64,000 nt of DNA from a phage. A model generated the notes under the pieces. That model ran no database searches. It was given only the letters and a program-made list of their open reading frames with translations, and was not told the DNA's origin. Location: assembly GCA_017864995.1 (NCBI GenBank), contig GCA_017864995.1_4097.1. One strand, given 5' to 3'. The translations under genes were made by a program, and so were the position numbers. This document shows positions 8,929 through 43,635 of the stretch, piece by piece. The number at the start of each line of letters is the position of its first letter. Positions within the stretch are counted from its first letter, which is position 1.

Positions 8929-9277
<349 letters not shown>

Positions 9278-9290
9278 CGAGGAATCCAAA

Positions 9291-9488
9291 GTGACTAAAG
9301 CAGAACTTGTAGCATTATTGGAATCATATCCCGATGATGCATGTATTGAAGTTGTTCATAGTGCGAGACATTTTGACATTGAAGATGTAGTACGTTATAA
9401 TGACAAAGGTGTACTCATCATGGAACTATGTATTGGTGAAATGAAAACTGTACCCGAATCAGAAAAACGTAAAAATAGTAAACCGTAA
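9291..9488 (+). CDS. hypothetical protein
   Basis: 65 aa ORF with GTG start preceded by GAGGAA SD. Confidence 0.55.
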   Translation: MTKAELVALLESYPDDACIEVVHSARHFDIEDVVRYNDKGVLIMELCIGEMKTVPESEKRKNSKP

Positions 9489-9498
9489 GGAAAATAAA

Positions 9499-9717
9499 AT
9501 GGAATCTACTCTATTAGAAGTTATTAACTCATTAAACGCTGGCGACAATGTTCAAGTACTCCTTCAGGGATACCGTGTAAAAGGTTCAGTAGTTTTAGTT
9601 AATGACACCACTGTTGTTGTAACTGAAACTAACCCGTTTGACAGTAATGAACTTGCTAATATCCATATTGATATTAAAAGTATTATTGGTGTTGGTGTAA
9701 CTAAACCACAAGAATAA
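9499..9717 (+). CDS. hypothetical protein
   Basis: 72 aa ORF, SD AAGGAAA upstream. Confidence 0.6.
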   Translation: MESTLLEVINSLNAGDNVQVLLQGYRVKGSVVLVNDTTVVVTETNPFDSNELANIHIDIKSIIGVGVTKPQE

Positions 9718-9738
9718 CAATTGTTATTGGGGATTACT

Positions 9739-10011
9739 ATGCATTTTGAAAAATTCAATACAAATCGTAACACACGCATTGACGTTCTTTATGAAACACA
9801 AGACACAATAAGCATTCGTACACGTAGTGGTGATGTATATCATGACTGTACTATTGGTTGGGAACAGGGAAGAACACGTAGTGCAGAATTCGATAACTAT
9901 CGCTTCTACCAAGGGGACACCACAATCTGGCCTGAAGACGTAGAAGATATTGCGATTGAAGATGAACATAAAGATGAATTTATAAAATTTAATCCCGAAA
10001 CCGAATCATAA
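9739..10011 (+). CDS. hypothetical protein
   Basis: Track ORF 9721 (TTG) trimmed to ATG 9739 with GGGGA SD. Confidence 0.55.
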   Translation: MHFEKFNTNRNTRIDVLYETQDTISIRTRSGDVYHDCTIGWEQGRTRSAEFDNYRFYQGDTTIWPEDVEDIAIEDEHKDEFIKFNPETES

Positions 10012-10014
10012 ATA

Positions 10015-10141
<127 letters not shown>

Positions 10142-10148
10142 CCAAAAT

Positions 10149-10249
<101 letters not shown>

Positions 10250-10251
10250 CC

Positions 10252-10412
<161 letters not shown>

Positions 10413-10416
<4 letters not shown>

Positions 10417-10573
10417 CACATGAAGAATGGATGAATGACATTAATTTTAGATATTCGGGTATCGGTAAATGGCTAAAGTATCATTGGGAATTCATTTCAG
10501 AGCCACATCTGTATGATAAACTTATCAACGATCCAGCATATGAAATGTACTTAATTGAACTACTGGTACGAAC

Positions 10574-10577
<4 letters not shown>
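10413..10577 (+). CDS. hypothetical small protein, MTHEEW family (copy 2)
   Basis: 54 aa ORF; ATGA overlap with copy 1; tandem duplicate. Confidence 0.5.
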
Positions 10578-10745
<168 letters not shown>

Positions 10746-10746
10746 G

Positions 10747-11200
<454 letters not shown>

Positions 11201-11228
11201 GTATCTTAATAACAGAAGGTATATTGAA

Positions 11229-11468
11229 ATGAGTAAGTATTTTGTGAGTTATAGTTATAATGTATCACAAAAGGTTCCACGTGGTGATGGAATGGGCTGG
11301 TCATATGATACATATACTTTAAATGAGTCATGTATCATCGAATTGCAAGAAAAAGACCTTGACATTTTAAAAATCAAACAATATATTCTTGATGTTGAAT
11401 TGGCACATCGTACCGACAACTGTCCAGATGTAAACAACGTCAACATCTTAGTACTAACCAAAGTATAA
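11229..11468 (+). CDS. hypothetical protein
   Basis: Track ORF 11199 trimmed to ATG 11229 with GAAGG SD. Confidence 0.55.
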   Translation: MSKYFVSYSYNVSQKVPRGDGMGWSYDTYTLNESCIIELQEKDLDILKIKQYILDVELAHRTDNCPDVNNVNILVLTKV

Positions 11469-11474
11469 GATAAA

Positions 11475-11508
<34 letters not shown>

Positions 11509-11514
11509 GAATTC

Positions 11515-11860
11515 CACAATCAGACGTATATGGTGTAAGTTACGTCGATGTAATCCAGAACAAGATCTCTGGTACTCTAGGAAGTGGTGAATGTTAACCT
11601 AGACGGGTTTGATAATTGGACGATAGGCAATTATTACTTGACTAGCAGGTTTAAACTAGAGGTGACAGTCCTTTACCAAACTGGAAAACCGGATGGACTT
11701 TTATTTAAAAGGGTAAGGCGTGGAAATATGTTTACAGTAGTTGCTTTTAGTAGCCTGTACGCCCCACGTCAAGGTAGCCGAAAGGCAAGTTAAAACGGGT
11801 GGTTATAAAGCTGAATTAACAGCGGCGTTTAAAAGCGTCACCATCCATTTTTTTAATTAA
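11515..11860 (+). ncRNA. candidate structured non-coding RNA (function unknown)
   Basis: About 350 nt driven by promoter at 11480, visibly higher GC than flanks, no convincing ORF (only a GTG-start 69 aa ORF of odd composition), multiple stems; lies in the tRNA region. Confidence 0.3.
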
Positions 11861-11870
11861 AGTTGGTGAT

Positions 11871-12690
<820 letters not shown>

Positions 12691-12703
12691 ATAGGAAATT
12701 AAA

Positions 12704-12889
12704 GTGCAACTTTTAATTCTTTCAATATTGTATATTATTATAATGGTTCCGATATCAATACGTTTAATTACACTTGAACGATTTTTATCGAAACATGGAA
12801 ATAGATCTATGATCTTTGTACCAATCGGGTTGATATTGTTTGGTATATTTTCATTTATAATGGGAATTAACGCTACATTCATTTCATAG
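12704..12889 (+). CDS. small hydrophobic membrane protein
   Basis: 61 aa ORF with GTG start; two hydrophobic segments. Confidence 0.4.
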   Translation: MQLLILSILYIIIMVPISIRLITLERFLSKHGNRSMIFVPIGLILFGIFSFIMGINATFIS

Positions 12890-12898
12890 GAAACAAAT

Positions 12899-13566
<668 letters not shown>

Positions 13567-13585
13567 AGAGGTACTTCGAGTATGC

Positions 13586-13916
<331 letters not shown>

Positions 13917-13967
13917 GCCTCCCCTCAATGCGAAAGAGTATGGAGACTTGTTGGTTATCTTACTTCT

Positions 13968-14050
<83 letters not shown>

Positions 14051-14053
14051 TCA

Positions 14054-14126
<73 letters not shown>

Positions 14127-14143
14127 CAAAATAAAGGTACACT

Positions 14144-14560
14144 ATGAAATACAACATTGTTAAAATGGTGAACTACGTATTAAAAAACAACGCATGGTCA
14201 CTGCATGATGTACAATTAGAAGATATTGGTGAAGTTAGAGTTTTTTGCTATGATGGCGATTTGAACGAAACCACTGATTTGAGTAAATGTTTTAATATTT
14301 TTCTTGGTTATGAAATCAATAATCATTTTTATTCATTTGATGTGTATTTTGAACGAGTTAAAATCAGAATTGCTAATGTAAATAGTGATTATTATGACAC
14401 TAGAATTGAATTGAATTTTGACGATATTGATACTGAAGAAAAATTCTTTCAGTACTGTCTCGTAAACGATCCAAATGGATTGACATTTGAGGACATTAAA
14501 GCTATACTTATAGTTCAAAGATTAATTCCAGAAGAGGTTCTAAATCCCTTTAATGACTAG
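14144..14560 (+). CDS. hypothetical protein, F-Q motif family
   Basis: 138 aa ORF; contains TEEKFFQYCLVNDPNG; C-terminus paralogous to next gene. Confidence 0.65.
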   Translation: MKYNIVKMVNYVLKNNAWSLHDVQLEDIGEVRVFCYDGDLNETTDLSKCFNIFLGYEINNHFYSFDVYFERVKIRIANVNSDYYDTRIELNFDDIDTEEKFFQYCLVNDPNGLTFEDIKAILIVQRLIPEEVLNPFND

Positions 14561-14912
14561 TTTAATAACTCGTATAATGCAAGATGTTCGTAAGAATCTT
14601 CATACTGGTAATTTTGATGATCCTAACATAAAAATATTATGTTATGATGGATTCACCCTAGTACATCCATCAGAATCTAATAATTTATACATAGTATATA
14701 CTTCTCCTAATCTTTTGTATCGATTTGATTTATATACTACAATGGCTAAGATAACATTAGGTGTTTCTAAGGAGCCAATTTTTATAGCAGTACGTGATTT
14801 TGAGTACACAGAAGAGTCATTATTCCAGTACTCAATGATAAATGACATTGGTGACTTGACATTAGAAGAGATAAATGTTATAGTTGGTATCTGTCGTTTG
14901 ATTAATCCATAA
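14553..14912 (+). CDS. hypothetical protein, F-Q motif family (tandem paralog)
   Basis: 119 aa ORF; contains TEESLFQYSMINDIG and C-terminal EINVIVGICRLINP matching upstream DIKAILIVQRLIP. Confidence 0.65.
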   Translation: MTSLITRIMQDVRKNLHTGNFDDPNIKILCYDGFTLVHPSESNNLYIVYTSPNLLYRFDLYTTMAKITLGVSKEPIFIAVRDFEYTEESLFQYSMINDIGDLTLEEINVIVGICRLINP

Positions 14913-14925
14913 CTCGGAGCTTAAT

Positions 14926-15117
14926 ATGTTTTTGAATTTGTTATGCTTATTTGGTCGTACATTGGTTCTTGCTATTATTCATACACCTGGTATTCGTAAT
15001 TATGTTTCTTATGAATTTAAGAAAAATTACCACAACAATACTGAAGTTCGTGCAACTAAGATGTGCAAAGACTTCAATGGAGATGTTCCACCATTCAAGA
15101 AGTACGAGGATGAATAA
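14926..15117 (+). CDS. hypothetical protein
   Basis: 63 aa ORF, N-terminal hydrophobic. Confidence 0.45.
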   Translation: MFLNLLCLFGRTLVLAIIHTPGIRNYVSYEFKKNYHNNTEVRATKMCKDFNGDVPPFKKYEDE

Positions 15118-15401
15118 TGGAATTTATTGTTGCACCTGATGAACTAAAAACATTCACGTTCCGAGACAATAACAATTATCCTTATACAAATCATTCATTG
15201 AATTCATTGCATGTTATTTCAATCATTGCATCTGAATACAGAGACAATCCATGTATTGATTTTAAAACCACTGATGGTGAATATACATGGGTAGTTCCGA
15301 ACGATAAATACAGTTATCAGGGTGCAGTAGAGATCCGCGACTCGATTCTAAAGCAAATCGAAGATGGACATACTCATCCTAAACTAAACATTCAGTACTG
15401 A
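15117..15401 (+). CDS. hypothetical protein
   Basis: 94 aa ORF; TAATG overlap. Confidence 0.6.
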   Translation: MEFIVAPDELKTFTFRDNNNYPYTNHSLNSLHVISIIASEYRDNPCIDFKTTDGEYTWVVPNDKYSYQGAVEIRDSILKQIEDGHTHPKLNIQY

Positions 15402-15414
15402 AATCGTTTAACCG

Positions 15415-15462
15415 GATAGCTTCTAGTCGGTACTGAATTCCTCCTTTTGTCTAGAAGCTATC
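15415..15462. promoter_or_regulatory. long hairpin (12-bp perfect inverted repeat)
   Basis: gatagcttctag ... ctagaagctatc with 24-nt loop, followed by ttttaaagTATAAT. Confidence 0.45.
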
Positions 15463-15560
15463 ACTCTTTTAAAGTATAATGATATCACCCTCATGGTTCA
15501 TTATATTCGTTACCCTCTAACAGTATCTTTTTATTCCTCTTTGATACTGTATTTTAGAAG

Positions 15561-15590
15561 TTGACATTTTTACTTCTACTGTGTTATACT
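15561..15590 (+). promoter_or_regulatory. sigma70-type promoter (TTGACA-18-TATACT)
   Basis: TTGACA at 15561 and TATACT at 15585. Confidence 0.5.
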
Positions 15591-15592
15591 TA

Positions 15593-15625
15593 AGGCTGAT
15601 TCATTATGAATCGGCCTTTTTTCTT
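15593..15625 (+). terminator. leader hairpin with T-run (terminator/attenuator-like)
   Basis: aggctgattcat/atgaatcggcct stem followed by TTTTTT, between promoter and start codon. Confidence 0.45.
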
Positions 15626-15640
15626 GTGGGGATTAATGTA

Positions 15641-16057
15641 ATGAATAAAGAAGTTATTAGTTTAATGGATGAGTATATCAACCAAACATATCGTTTTATA
15701 TTTTTTAATGCATTTGAGTCCAGGACAACGTATCATTCTGGTGAATATGAGATAATAACTGGATCATTTCTTAACGGATACATGGAGTTTTTAGAACAAA
15801 GCGATAATGTTTTCATTTCCATATCTGAAAAACATGGTGATGATTATGTTATTGATGTATGGCCTAATAAAGTAGAGATTGACACTACAAAGAAAATTGT
15901 AATTGATGTGGACGAATCATTGTATGATTTAACTGAAGATATGTATATGCAACTAAATTTCGTATACGATCTAACTAACATAAGTTATTCTAATCTAAGT
16001 AAATTATTTTATATTTGTGGTGTACTACATAAAAACGTACAACAAAATAAAGGATAA
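15641..16057 (+). CDS. hypothetical protein
   Basis: Track ORF 15581 trimmed to ATG 15641 with GGGGA SD, downstream of the leader hairpin. Confidence 0.6.
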   Translation: MNKEVISLMDEYINQTYRFIFFNAFESRTTYHSGEYEIITGSFLNGYMEFLEQSDNVFISISEKHGDDYVIDVWPNKVEIDTTKKIVIDVDESLYDLTEDMYMQLNFVYDLTNISYSNLSKLFYICGVLHKNVQQNKG

Positions 16058-25065: not shown

Positions 25066-26031
25066 GTGAAAAAGCTTGATTTAAATGCAATTTCTGAAGA
25101 AGTACTGGATGAGTGTTTTGCTAGTGAAGAAGTCAACGTATTAGAGGCTCTTGATTCCGTCGAAGAAGAAGAACATGACGGTCACAAGTTTGAGAAACCA
25201 AAAACAGGTATCAGCTTAACTCGCCCTAAAGGGATAACGAATGAAATGCTCATCCAAGCAGTGCGTGATGGTATTGACGTTGAAAAGAACATTGACCTTT
25301 TGGTTCGCTACAACTATCCAATGGTAGTAAGTGTTGCACGTAAGTGTACATGTTTTATCCCATTTGAAGATAAGATTTCTTATGGTGTTGAAGGTTTAAT
25401 GCGAGCAATTCATACGTTCGACACTACCAAAAATGTTAAGTTCATTACATATGCAACAACAACTGTGTACATGACAATCTATAACGAAAGTGCAGATGCT
25501 AATTATCTAGTGCATTTCCCACGTTATATGAGTGTTAATAACATTTATGTGAAACGTTGTGTAGAAGAGTATCAAAGGAAACATGGTAAATACCCAACTC
25601 CTGAGATGGTGTCAAAAGAGACTGGTATTGAGATTCAACACGTTAAGAATTGTCTAACTTACAGTAACACTTATGTAGCATTGAATATGAAAATGAGTAA
25701 TGATTCAGAAAGTACATTATCTGACATTGTTACTTCAGTTGAACCTGATTACAACTTAGGCGTAGAAACTGTCAGTACCCCACTGGTACAAAGTATTGCA
25801 GAAATGATGAGTAACCTATCTGCCAAAGACCGTGAATTGATTGAACGTGTACATGGTATTGGTTCTTATTCTGAACCCGAAACGCTACGAGAAATCATTG
25901 AGAGTGGTTTTGAAGATGAGAAGGGTAAGGTCATGACTGCTCGTTCTTCATTGCACCGTAAGTACTCTGAAGCAATGGAACGACTGCGTAAGATGGTTAA
26001 GACAAAAGGTTATGAGTTCGAAGATTTTTAA
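25066..26031 (+). CDS. RNA polymerase sigma factor, sigma-70 family (phage-encoded)
   Basis: Region-2-like LVRYNYPMVVSVARKC...GVEGLMRAIHTFDTTKNVKFITYATTTV and region-4-like LIERVHGIGSYSEPETLREI; GTG start with GGAGAAG SD. Confidence 0.7.
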   Translation: MKKLDLNAISEEVLDECFASEEVNVLEALDSVEEEEHDGHKFEKPKTGISLTRPKGITNEMLIQAVRDGIDVEKNIDLLVRYNYPMVVSVARKCTCFIPFEDKISYGVEGLMRAIHTFDTTKNVKFITYATTTVYMTIYNESADANYLVHFPRYMSVNNIYVKRCVEEYQRKHGKYPTPEMVSKETGIEIQHVKNCLTYSNTYVALNMKMSNDSESTLSDIVTSVEPDYNLGVETVSTPLVQSIAEMMSNLSAKDRELIERVHGIGSYSEPETLREIIESGFEDEKGKVMTARSSLHRKYSEAMERLRKMVKTKGYEFEDF

Positions 26032-28428: not shown

Positions 28429-28456
28429 TTGACATAAGATATCAGTACTGTATAAT
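28429..28456 (+). promoter_or_regulatory. early promoter (TTGACA-16-TATAAT)
   Basis: ttgacataagatatcagtactgtataatgtttatatcaa. Confidence 0.6.
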
Positions 28457-29458: not shown

Positions 29459-29823
29459 GCCTTGATACAACCCGTGCAACAGATTTATTAACTCGTATGA
29501 ATAATGAAGAATTTCTTGCTGAAATAAAGTACAAGCTTGAAAAACTGGCACGAAGTGCTGAAGTAATTGAAGTTGAAGGTCACTTACCAATGGACCAATT
29601 CCATACGTTCAACGAAGATATGGTTTATTATCCAAATGAAATTTGGATTGAGTGGGAGTCATGGACTAACAAAACTCTACGCATTGAAGGTTATTGTGTG
29701 AATTATGAATCTGAACCTGGTGATGTTACAAAAACTCTCTCCATTTGGTGTACAAAAACACATGAACTCGTTGAGGTGAATTTGAATTATATGAAAGGTT
29801 TCCGTTGGGGTGATGTTCAATGA
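29455..29823 (+). CDS. hypothetical protein
   Basis: 122 aa ORF; ATGA overlap. Confidence 0.6.
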   Translation: MSLDTTRATDLLTRMNNEEFLAEIKYKLEKLARSAEVIEVEGHLPMDQFHTFNEDMVYYPNEIWIEWESWTNKTLRIEGYCVNYESEPGDVTKTLSIWCTKTHELVEVNLNYMKGFRWGDVQ

Positions 29824-30095
29824 TTAAAAAACTATTGACAGTTGTCTTTGTATTCTGTACAATGTTTCTTACAGCATGTAATGATGACGGCAGGTTTAGT
29901 GCAAAAGACTTAGTTCGTCAGGATTGTACATTCACAGGTAAGTCTTTTATTAACGAGTATGAGGTATGTACACAATCAGGCCGTATCTGTGGTGGTTGGG
30001 AAAAACGTCAGGAGAGATTGTATGTATATGAATGCCCTGGACATCTCAACAAAGTACTAAGCACACACAAACTTGTTTATGATAAGGTTGAATAA
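29820..30095 (+). CDS. putative lipoprotein (Cys-rich)
   Basis: N-terminus MIKKLLTVVFVFCTMFLTACNDD with lipobox-like LTAC. Confidence 0.6.
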   Translation: MIKKLLTVVFVFCTMFLTACNDDGRFSAKDLVRQDCTFTGKSFINEYEVCTQSGRICGGWEKRQERLYVYECPGHLNKVLSTHKLVYDKVE

Positions 30096-43607: not shown

Positions 43608-43635
43608 TTGACAAACTCATTCAGTACTGTATAAT
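43608..43635 (+). promoter_or_regulatory. early promoter (TTGACA-16-TATAAT)
   Basis: ttgacaaactcattcagtactgtataatgtttatcaa; same family as 28429 and 10748. Confidence 0.6.

Follow-up and report, generated by a model that had tools for sequence, protein, structure and literature searches.

The 64,000-nt stretch of phage DNA that was analysed here (contig GCA_017864995.1_4097.1, hereafter the window) carries a 239-bp gap at 15402-15640, which separates two open reading frames (ORFs) with no assigned function, and this work concerns the promoter-like sequence and the adjoining hairpin at the 3' end of that gap. Judging by sequence similarity, the window comes from an Asteriusvirus, i.e., a jumbo phage of E. 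coli of the PBECO4/121Q type: its closest relatives are the Escherichia phages Ecwhy_1, BF17 and fEgEco12 (97-99% identity), and the identity to PBECO4, 121Q, G17 and phAPEC6 is ~86%. The genomes of these phages are 350-385 kb in size. Neither of the flanking ORFs belongs to a Pfam family, and both have PHROG matches only of unknown function. The TGA stop codon of the upstream ORF (15399-15401) lies within the palindrome TTCAGTACTGAA, and the downstream ORF, a variable gene of 138 aa with ~43% identity to its PBECO4-type counterpart, opens an operon that spans 15641 to ~19089. Between them, the gap contains five hairpins in the order H1, H1b, H2, H2b and terminator. All of the sequence elements that had been listed in the initial annotation of this region are present where it had placed them. 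The features of the locus are as follows.

15117-15401, + strand: last ORF of the upstream early operon, 94 aa, phrog_30132, no assigned function
15391-15402, no strand: palindrome TTCAGTACTGAA, copy 1 of the CAGTACTG motif, left edge of the conserved non-coding module
15415-15462, + strand: hairpin H1, 12-bp perfect stem, 24-nt loop
15473-15507, + strand: hairpin H1b (AGTATAATGA / TCATTATATT), CACCCTC in the loop, TATAAT in the 5' arm
15520-15550, + strand: hairpin H2 (ACAGTATC / GATACTGT), 15-nt pyrimidine-rich loop with TTCCTC
15555-15578, + strand: hairpin H2b (TAGAAGT / ACTTCTA), which encloses the -35 hexamer
15561-15590, + strand: putative sigma-70-type promoter, TTGACA, 18-nt spacer, extended -10 TGTTATACT
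15592-15625, + strand: predicted intrinsic terminator, 12-pair stem, 3-nt loop, T-run, -15.7 kcal/mol
15628-15643, + strand: Shine-Dalgarno-like GGGGA (15628-15632) and ATG (15641), start of the first gene of the downstream operon

The probable promoter/terminator cassette

The segment 15555-15625 (~70 bp) is probably a composite early-promoter/terminator cassette of the kind known as PeSLs, in which an early promoter is joined to a terminating stem-loop; we put the probability of this reading at about 0.68. The -35 hexamer TTGACA (15561-15566) and the -10 hexamer TATACT (15585-15590) scored 11 of 12 matches in the promoter scan, with TG present, and because the 18-nt spacer ends in TGT, the -10 element is of the extended type (TGnTATACT, 15582-15590). 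Promoter-like hexamer pairs were not enriched in the window (60 found, 57.5 expected), so the promoter call rests on the quality of the match and its conservation, not on counts. Its TATACTTA form is common to other promoters of the window, at 14480 and 20352, and no other 11/12-match promoter was found by the scan ahead of the first gene of the downstream operon.

The terminator stem begins 1 nt past the end of the -10 element. Its hairpin, AAGGCTGATTCAT-T-ATGAATCGGCCTT (15592-15618), has 12 pairs, five of which are G-C, and the T-run TTTTTTCTT occupies 15617-15625, its first two T's closing the stem. Scanning the window revealed no other terminator with an 11/12-match promoter that ends 1-3 nt before the stem, and by the same scan this hairpin is the sole intrinsic terminator on the + strand between 7007 and 19105. 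It is also marked as a terminator in the annotations of G17 (ARNold, -11.6) and UE-S1. Folded as RNA, the 261-nt region has a z-score of -6.3 compared with dinucleotide shuffles. The terminator is predicted to be unidirectional because a conserved U.G pair and the lack of an upstream A-run disable the opposite strand.

Initiation by sigma-70 is expected 6-9 nt past the -10 element, which is here 15596-15599, with the purines G15598 and A15599 as the likely first bases; the predicted start at 15597-15599 would fall in the 5' arm of the terminator. Starts at these distances strip off the G-C-rich base of the stem: the hairpins of RNAs that begin at 15596, 15597, 15598 and 15599 have energies of -6.9, -4.7, -4.7 and -0.2 kcal/mol, compared with -15.7 kcal/mol for the full one, and the leftover stem lies 4-7 nt away from the U-run. 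As local transcripts would lack the full 5' arm, the most economical reading is that the element stops read-through and lets locally started RNA pass. The initial annotation had proposed this escape logic, and the anatomy, the energetics, the conservation and the precedent of the PeSLs argue for it; two secondary readings, a further promoter at a TATAAT and an attenuator, did not stand up, as described below.

According to this model, RNA polymerase arriving from the heavily promoted upstream operon of tRNAs and small ORFs would transcribe 15592-15618 together with the U-run and terminate. Polymerase that binds at TTGACA-18-TGnTATACT would start at ~15597-15599, inside the 5' arm, and its RNA, deprived of the G-C base of the stem, would form no terminator and would be extended into the downstream operon. 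The small residual stem at the 5' end of this mRNA might also guard it against decay. The cassette would in this way uncouple the two operons. On the upstream side there are six tRNA genes and many small ORFs on the + strand, and ten consensus-like sigma-70 promoters precede the hairpin at 9229-14856. As a separate observation on this operon, a tandem pair of tRNA-Thr(UGU) genes (13974-14047 and 14054-14127) is shared by the window, BF17, Turkey3 and JNE01; G17 has a single copy, and the alignment with G17 indicates that the extra copy is an insertion in the window.

Conservation and the homology boundary

The module was found in a single copy in all 36 matching Asteriusvirus records and nowhere else in the phage collection. 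Eight lineages were aligned (the window, CMSTMSU, G17, 121Q, UE-S1, ph0011, JNE01 and A4), of which about six are independent. The sequences TGTTATACTTA and GGCTGA..TC..G..CCTTTTT are invariant in eight of the eight, and the terminator stem, GGCTGA.TC...GA.TC.GCCTTTTT, is invariant or nearly so. The sequence of the promoter spacer varies, and a -35-like hexamer (TTGACA/T, TTGATT or TTGCAT) is kept at a distance of 17-18 nt in all of the lineages; at the level of sequence, this is the footprint that is expected of a working promoter. The initially annotated arrangement of TTGACA-18-TATACT followed by a hairpin and T-run was confirmed and is conserved in every Asteriusvirus lineage.

The hairpins show covariation. 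Most of the sequence of the H2 and H2b stems differs in A4, with the pairing preserved; that of H2b is wholly replaced (GGTATTG / CAATGCC), and TTGAC is retained despite this. Changes on both sides affect three of the eight pairs of H2 and four of the seven pairs of H2b, and in the terminator stem there is a compensatory change from U-A to A-U in JNE01 and a change from U.G to U-A in ph0011. The structure belongs to the RNA of the + strand because the conserved U.G would become C.A on the other strand. When the alignment was fitted to a covariance model that comprised H2, H2b and the terminator, 96.6% of its cells were paired compared with 28-49% when the partners were slid, and both-sided changes were found in eight pairs compared with 1.6 in shuffles, none of the 500 shuffles reaching the observed value. 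More divergent copies were sought in a scan of viral contigs, which returned 121Q itself alone, and in a metagenome scan with a 16-base pattern, which returned mostly chance matches and one G17-type copy; the covariation thus rests on about six lineages, and its support, obtained from a fitted alignment, is good but not overwhelming. Erwinia Alexandravirus phages encode a homologue of the upstream ORF with 33% identity, and the gap that follows it shows no resemblance to the module and has a terminator of the ordinary kind.

The cassette marks the junction of a conserved block and a variable block of unassigned ORFs. The identity to G17 is 82-98% over 14939-15638 and 44-64% from 15639, and the megablast match to G17 stops exactly at 15625, the last base of the T-run; a ~300-bp insertion or deletion relative to G17 follows at 16036. 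Between the two phage groups, the upstream protein is ~94% and the downstream protein ~43% identical. JNE01/Turkey5 lack the upstream ORF and have a downstream ORF of 31% identity, and they keep the module from the CAGTACTG palindrome through to the terminator. Of the 22 homology breakpoints in the window, 6 lie within 30 nt of a promoter/terminator element (random mean 1.4, p ~0.002).

Upstream hairpins and alternative explanations

Four hairpins precede the terminator. The 12-bp perfect inverted repeat that had been initially annotated is the stem of H1, with the arms GATAGCTTCTAG (15415-15426) and CTAGAAGCTATC (15451-15462) and an energy of -18.1 kcal/mol as RNA. Such repeats (at least 12 bp, loops of 3-30 nt) exceed chance, four being present in the 64-kb window compared with a mean of 0.28 in 100 second-order Markov simulations; the other three are terminators. 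H1 is followed by ACTCTTTTAAAG and TATAAT (15475-15480), which could be taken for a second promoter. This reading was not borne out: the -35 has at best three of six matches, there is no TG and the promoter scan does not list it, and the TATAAT contributes to the stem of H1b and is missing from two lineages, JNE01/Turkey5 and ph0011. The loop of H1 holds copy 2 of the palindrome at 15428-15435 (CGGTACTG in the window, CAGTACTG in its relatives) and CCTCCTT (15440-15446), the same sequence as the anti-Shine-Dalgarno core of 16S rRNA. Copy 1 is conserved in JNE01 even though it is non-coding there. H1 is almost invariant; 10 of its 11 stem pairs never vary, and its changes are limited to two substitutions that form G.U and, in A4, a compensatory pair together with an extension of the stem. 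The five-hairpin architecture is kept across the lineages with local variations: the 3' arm of H1 and the whole of H1b are deleted in ph0011, and H1b is missing in JNE01 and degenerate in UE-S1. Given these losses, the 5' half is dispensable for the function of the 3' cassette. The A4 locus has, at ~960-1005, an extra hairpin with a 10-bp stem (TCTCTCCAGG...CCTGGAGAGA) between H1 and H1b, whose pairing in the minimum-energy fold is slightly staggered; its loop contains CCAGTAC, and the insertion shows that the module gains and loses hairpin units.

No other 240-nt stretch of the + strand in the first 51 kb is as rich in pyrimidines as the gap (61% compared with 47 +/- 4%). CCTC is depleted in these 51 kb (33 copies compared with 59 expected), and 4 of the 33 lie in the gap; CCTCCTT occurs as a single sense-strand copy in the + strand gene block, and chance predicts one. 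Loop motifs of the CCTCC type are found in the window-type, G17/121Q, JNE01 and A4 sequences. The stretch 15461-15540 contains 19 C and 6 G, ~3 standard deviations (sd) above the mean and in the top 0.2% of windows, with much of it predicted to be paired. Moreover, two copies of CAGUACUG can pair over 12 bp (15390-15401 with 15427-15438) as an alternative to H1. In the window, the fold with this pairing has -14.6 kcal/mol compared with -22.4 kcal/mol for the fold with H1, and in JNE01, A4 and UE-S1 it is the preferred one. The four upstream hairpins represent conserved RNA structure of the upstream operon's untranslated 3' tail, and the promoter/terminator logic does not require them. Candidate roles are the protection of the 3' end, a region for loading Rho and a protein-binding region, and the 5' features would be compatible with an RNA that acts in trans, a Rho site, a platform for protein binding or the stacked remains of earlier cassettes.

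Two further observations concern these hairpins. The loop of H1b (GAUAUCACCCUCAUGG, 15480-15496) is predicted to form a duplex of -20 kcal/mol with the ribosome-binding region (29795-29825, ..GUUGGGGUGAUGUUCAAUG) of an ORF that starts at 29820, ~4.8 sd beyond the mean of the start regions tested, which may be chance among ~500 tests. GATAGCTT, the first eight bases of the H1 arm, has only three further occurrences in the window when both strands are counted; at 9088-9109 and 12978-12994, in coding regions, it lies at most 7 nt from CAGTACTG, mirroring H1, and these pairs may represent a two-part motif or what is left of the same module.

No 8-mer of the window is more strongly over-represented than CAGTACTG, which has 37 sites compared with ~1 in shuffles (0.66 by base composition), a 37-56-fold excess; examples are at 10762, 11183, 11494, 12253, 15393, 28443 and 43622. 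Its sites are evenly spread over the window, in three reading frames and in intergenic DNA. AGTACT occurs 184 times compared with 21.8 expected (a ~8-fold excess), and TCAGTACTGA 10 times compared with 0.1. In the comparison with G17, which has the same excess of CAGTACTG and AGTACT, 110 of 152 AGTACT words were kept (compared with 48.8% of random words) and 21 of 32 CAGTACTG sites (compared with 41.6%). These figures point to selection at the DNA level for a binding, modification or cleavage site; a literature search on the palindrome returned nothing useful. As a recombination junction CAGTACTG was rejected, since once promoters were accounted for its breakpoint association was 3 of 22 compared with 0.96 (p = 0.07). 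The motif also forms part of a repeated early-promoter motif, cTTGAC(T/A)aaatagtTCAGTACTG(a)TATAATg, in which it lies in the spacer and abuts the -10.

10748-10775, 11169-11196, 11480-11508, 12239-12267, 28429-28456 and 43608-43635: cTTGAC(T/A) promoter motif

Several points weigh against reading 15555-15625 as a promoter/terminator cassette. The 18-nt spacer is one longer than optimal, for which TG usually compensates. Starts at 15594-15595 would leave hairpins of -14.4 or -10.7 kcal/mol and could terminate the promoter's own transcripts, and, with the terminator placed 3' of the promoter, read-through polymerases cross the promoter and may occlude it. The cassette has a single copy per genome, unlike classical PeSLs, and, at 239 bp, the intergenic region far exceeds the length of a PeSL (~100 bp). 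The stem is more nearly invariant than pairing needs, which the model accounts for only loosely, through recombination or through constraints on the initially transcribed sequence. Full-text literature searches returned no mapping of promoters, terminators or transcripts for 121Q, PBECO4 or phAPEC6. Finally, the phage's own sigma-70-family factor bears on which holoenzyme uses the promoter and when. This factor is encoded at 25066-26031 (+ strand, 321 aa) and has Pfam matches to regions 2 and 3 only, region 4 having none at the threshold used; it could prefer promoters with an extended -10, of which the invariant TGTTATACT (15582-15590) is one.

Among the other explanations, it is unlikely that 15391-15625 is primarily a structured regulatory RNA, that is, a 3' tail possibly processed to a stable RNA of ~200 nt or shorter, whose loops CCUCCUU, CACCCUC, UACCCUC and UUCCUC would recognise ribosome-binding sites by pairing or else bind a protein and in which the overlap with the promoter would be secondary. 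The conserved order of the five hairpins, their covariation, one-sided changes that are solely G.U on the + strand and the fold z-score would all fit such an RNA, as would the retention of the module in JNE01/Turkey5, where both flanking genes differ, and the pyrimidine-rich composition of the gap with its share of the CCTC words and its CCTCC-type loops. However, no promoter of its own with at least 9 of 12 matches lies upstream of H1, the TATAAT at 15475 being without a -35 and lost in two lineages, and half of the structure is dispensable, judging by the deletions in ph0011 and JNE01. The single-stranded segments of A4 are not conserved, one CCTCCTT in 51 kb equals the chance expectation, the target scan gave one outlier only and there are only about six independent lineages. 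No Rfam family matched the region either: at the gathering thresholds of Rfam 15, only six tRNAs passed in the whole window, and at an E-value of at most 10 the best match within 15300-15750 had 23.9 bits compared with a threshold of 41 and was essentially the terminator; ARAGORN found no tRNA or tmRNA in the gap. Quite unlikely, too, is the claim that 15391-15625, the 235 nt that run from the CAGTACTG palindrome through the terminator, make up a conserved and structured RNA of the phage that acts in trans. As the tail of the highly transcribed tRNA/early operon, with anti-Shine-Dalgarno-like CCUCC loops and the self-complementary CAGUACUG, it would target ribosome-binding sites or tie up a host RNA-binding protein in the course of takeover, and the overlap with the cassette would merely supply its 3' end.

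It is improbable that the promoter is non-functional and that the hairpin is a plain intrinsic terminator. TTGACA/TATACT would in that case be a relic, or would owe its conservation to something else, for example a site for RNase E or Hfq immediately before the terminator, or a hot spot of recombination. The chance-level number of hexamer pairs in AT-rich DNA and the 18-nt spacer would agree with this, and the position of the -35 inside the covarying H2b could explain part of its conservation. However, the -35, TG and -10 each occur at the correct spacing in all six lineages as the spacer sequence changes, A4 retains TTGAC in a rewritten stem, no second promoter with 11 of 12 matches precedes the first gene of the downstream operon and the TATACTTA form recurs in the promoters at 14480 and 20352. 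A conditional terminator, i.e., an attenuator or antiterminator in which alternative pairings decide whether upstream transcripts stop, is very improbable. The candidate mechanism would have the CAGUACUG copies pair instead of H1, as set by ribosomes at the overlapping stop codon, and 15461-15540 could load Rho. The 12-bp helix of copy 1 and copy 2, its preference in three lineages, the overlap of copy 1 with the stop codon and the excess of C over G speak for it. Yet neither conformer touches the terminator hairpin, which is formed in every predicted fold, H1 has no conserved U-run after it, copy 1 of JNE01 lies ~20 nt past the stop codon, so that the coupling to translation is not conserved, and the C>G bias is modest in a stretch much of which is predicted to be base-paired. 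The initial annotation had offered an attenuator as an option, and there is no basis for it because, whichever lineage is folded, no pairing rivals the terminator in the minimum-energy or centroid structure. It is scarcely probable that H1 and the CAGTACTG palindromes are operator-like binding sites in double-stranded DNA for a phage or host protein and not RNA structures. The arms and the loop palindrome of H1 are more nearly invariant than an RNA stem needs, CAGTACTG is over-represented, found in promoter spacers and conserved above background, and GATAGCTT accompanies it at two more sites (9088 and 12987). Against this, the few changes in H1 all keep the pairing of the + strand RNA, ph0011 deletes H1 and keeps the promoter and terminator, and H1 is 100-145 bp upstream of the -35, a long way off for a simple operator.

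Two further candidates were rejected. The small ORFs annotated in the gap (121Q gene 145, G17_00168 and a minus-strand coding sequence of SD-1_S14) have starts and frames that are not conserved between lineages. An RNA of the minus strand that acts as a CsrA sponge through GGA loops is contradicted by one-sided changes that are G.U on the + strand, by the change of U.G to C.A and by the lack of a minus-strand terminator. A replication origin was also considered, and no anatomical feature calls for one.

Related elements and comparison with known systems

Elsewhere in the window, at 26042-47848, there is a PeSL-like family of eight copies of A(A/G)GGTTGACTTCGGTC(A/G)(A/G)CC(C/T)-T-run, also written A(A/G)GGTTGACTTCGGTCAACCC-TTTTT-GC-TATAAT, in which a terminator hairpin lies in the promoter spacer.

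26042, 34519, 38113, 38893, 40474, 41156, 45780 and 47848: eight-copy cassette AGGGTTGACTTCGGTCAACCC-TTTTTGC-TATAAT-cATTTCATCAAC, hairpin with a UUCG loop

In these repeated cassettes, the 5' arm carries the -35 (TTGACT), the T-run serves as the spacer and the -10 follows; in at least six of the eight, the -10 (TATAAT or TATACT) lies 17-18 nt past TTGACT. Several of the copies are located at homology breakpoints with G17. Judging from their layout, upstream polymerase would stop in the spacer and the local transcript would start past the hairpin, and the studied locus reaches the same end by the opposite geometry. A second terminator family, (A)GCCAGTAC-loop-GTACTGGC(T), is built on the word CAGTAC and occurs on both strands at 51190-63240, one after each of a series of paralogous minus-strand genes for proteins of ~360-460 aa. 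G17 annotates these paralogues as 'putative DNA condensation protein' with an RCC1/ATS1-like domain.

The terminator of the cassette resembles the intrinsic terminators of enterobacteria and their phages in its G-C-based 12-pair stem, 3-nt loop and U-run of 6-8 nt. It differs from them in that a consensus promoter ends one nt before the stem, so that the element would also set the 5' end of the next transcript. Small RNAs that are derived from the 3' untranslated regions of enterobacterial genes end at the operon terminator, and small RNAs such as CyaR have anti-Shine-Dalgarno loops; the locus resembles them, and it is a resemblance only, in its structured untranslated tail, its intrinsic terminator and its C/U-rich loops that are able to pair with ribosome-binding sites. 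With the morons of lambdoid phages, which are units of promoter, gene and terminator (PMC2839356), the locus shares autonomous transcription signals around variable genes. Here, however, the terminator of one unit is physically fused to the promoter of the next, and the signals coincide with a homology boundary, which is a property of PeSLs and not of morons.

PeSLs were defined by Arbiol et al. (2010) in the phages RB49 and phi1 as strong sigma-70-like early promoters combined with transcription-terminating stem-loops, and were divided into five subclasses by the position of the stem-loop, which lies between or over the -35 and -10 boxes or just past the -10 (PMC2839356). Fusions to lacZ showed their terminator and promoter activity, recombination between them was demonstrated and the escape logic, in which read-through is stopped and local transcripts pass, was published for these cassettes (PMC2839356). 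They are found at insertion/deletion and replacement junctions (PMC2839356; PMC4122927), and Comeau et al. (2014) extended them to T4/PST and KVP40/nt-1 with degraded copies near insertions and deletions (PMC4122927). The studied cassette is like them in that a near-consensus early promoter is fused to a predicted terminating stem-loop just past the -10, as in one of the subclasses, that it lies between genes, directly before the Shine-Dalgarno sequence and ATG of a small unassigned gene, and that it sits at a junction of conserved and replaced DNA; in addition, the same Asteriusvirus genome has the repeated PeSL-like family with the hairpin in the spacer. Unlike them, it occurs in an Asteriusvirus jumbo phage, outside the T4-like group in which PeSLs were defined, ~150 nt of further conserved hairpins precede it, and it is not a dispersed repeat, having no sister copies with which to recombine. 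Being single-copy, it is PeSL-like in its working and not a classical repeated PeSL.

The current understanding of transcription is unchanged by this element, which is a clean example of a design already described in T4-like phages and no new mechanism; more unusual leads are the covarying hairpins with CCUCC loops and the excess of AGTACT and CAGTACTG. If the cassette works as proposed, it would provide a concrete operon boundary, with the upstream tRNA/early operon, an insulator and the variable block of unassigned ORFs, as well as a compact natural insulator and a possible part for synthetic biology, in which a 65-bp element stops incoming transcription and sets a fixed new level. Its position at a sharp homology boundary supports the idea that such cassettes are points of gene-module exchange in large phages, and, with this locus, the PeSL design would extend beyond the T4-like phages to the Asteriusvirus jumbo phages.

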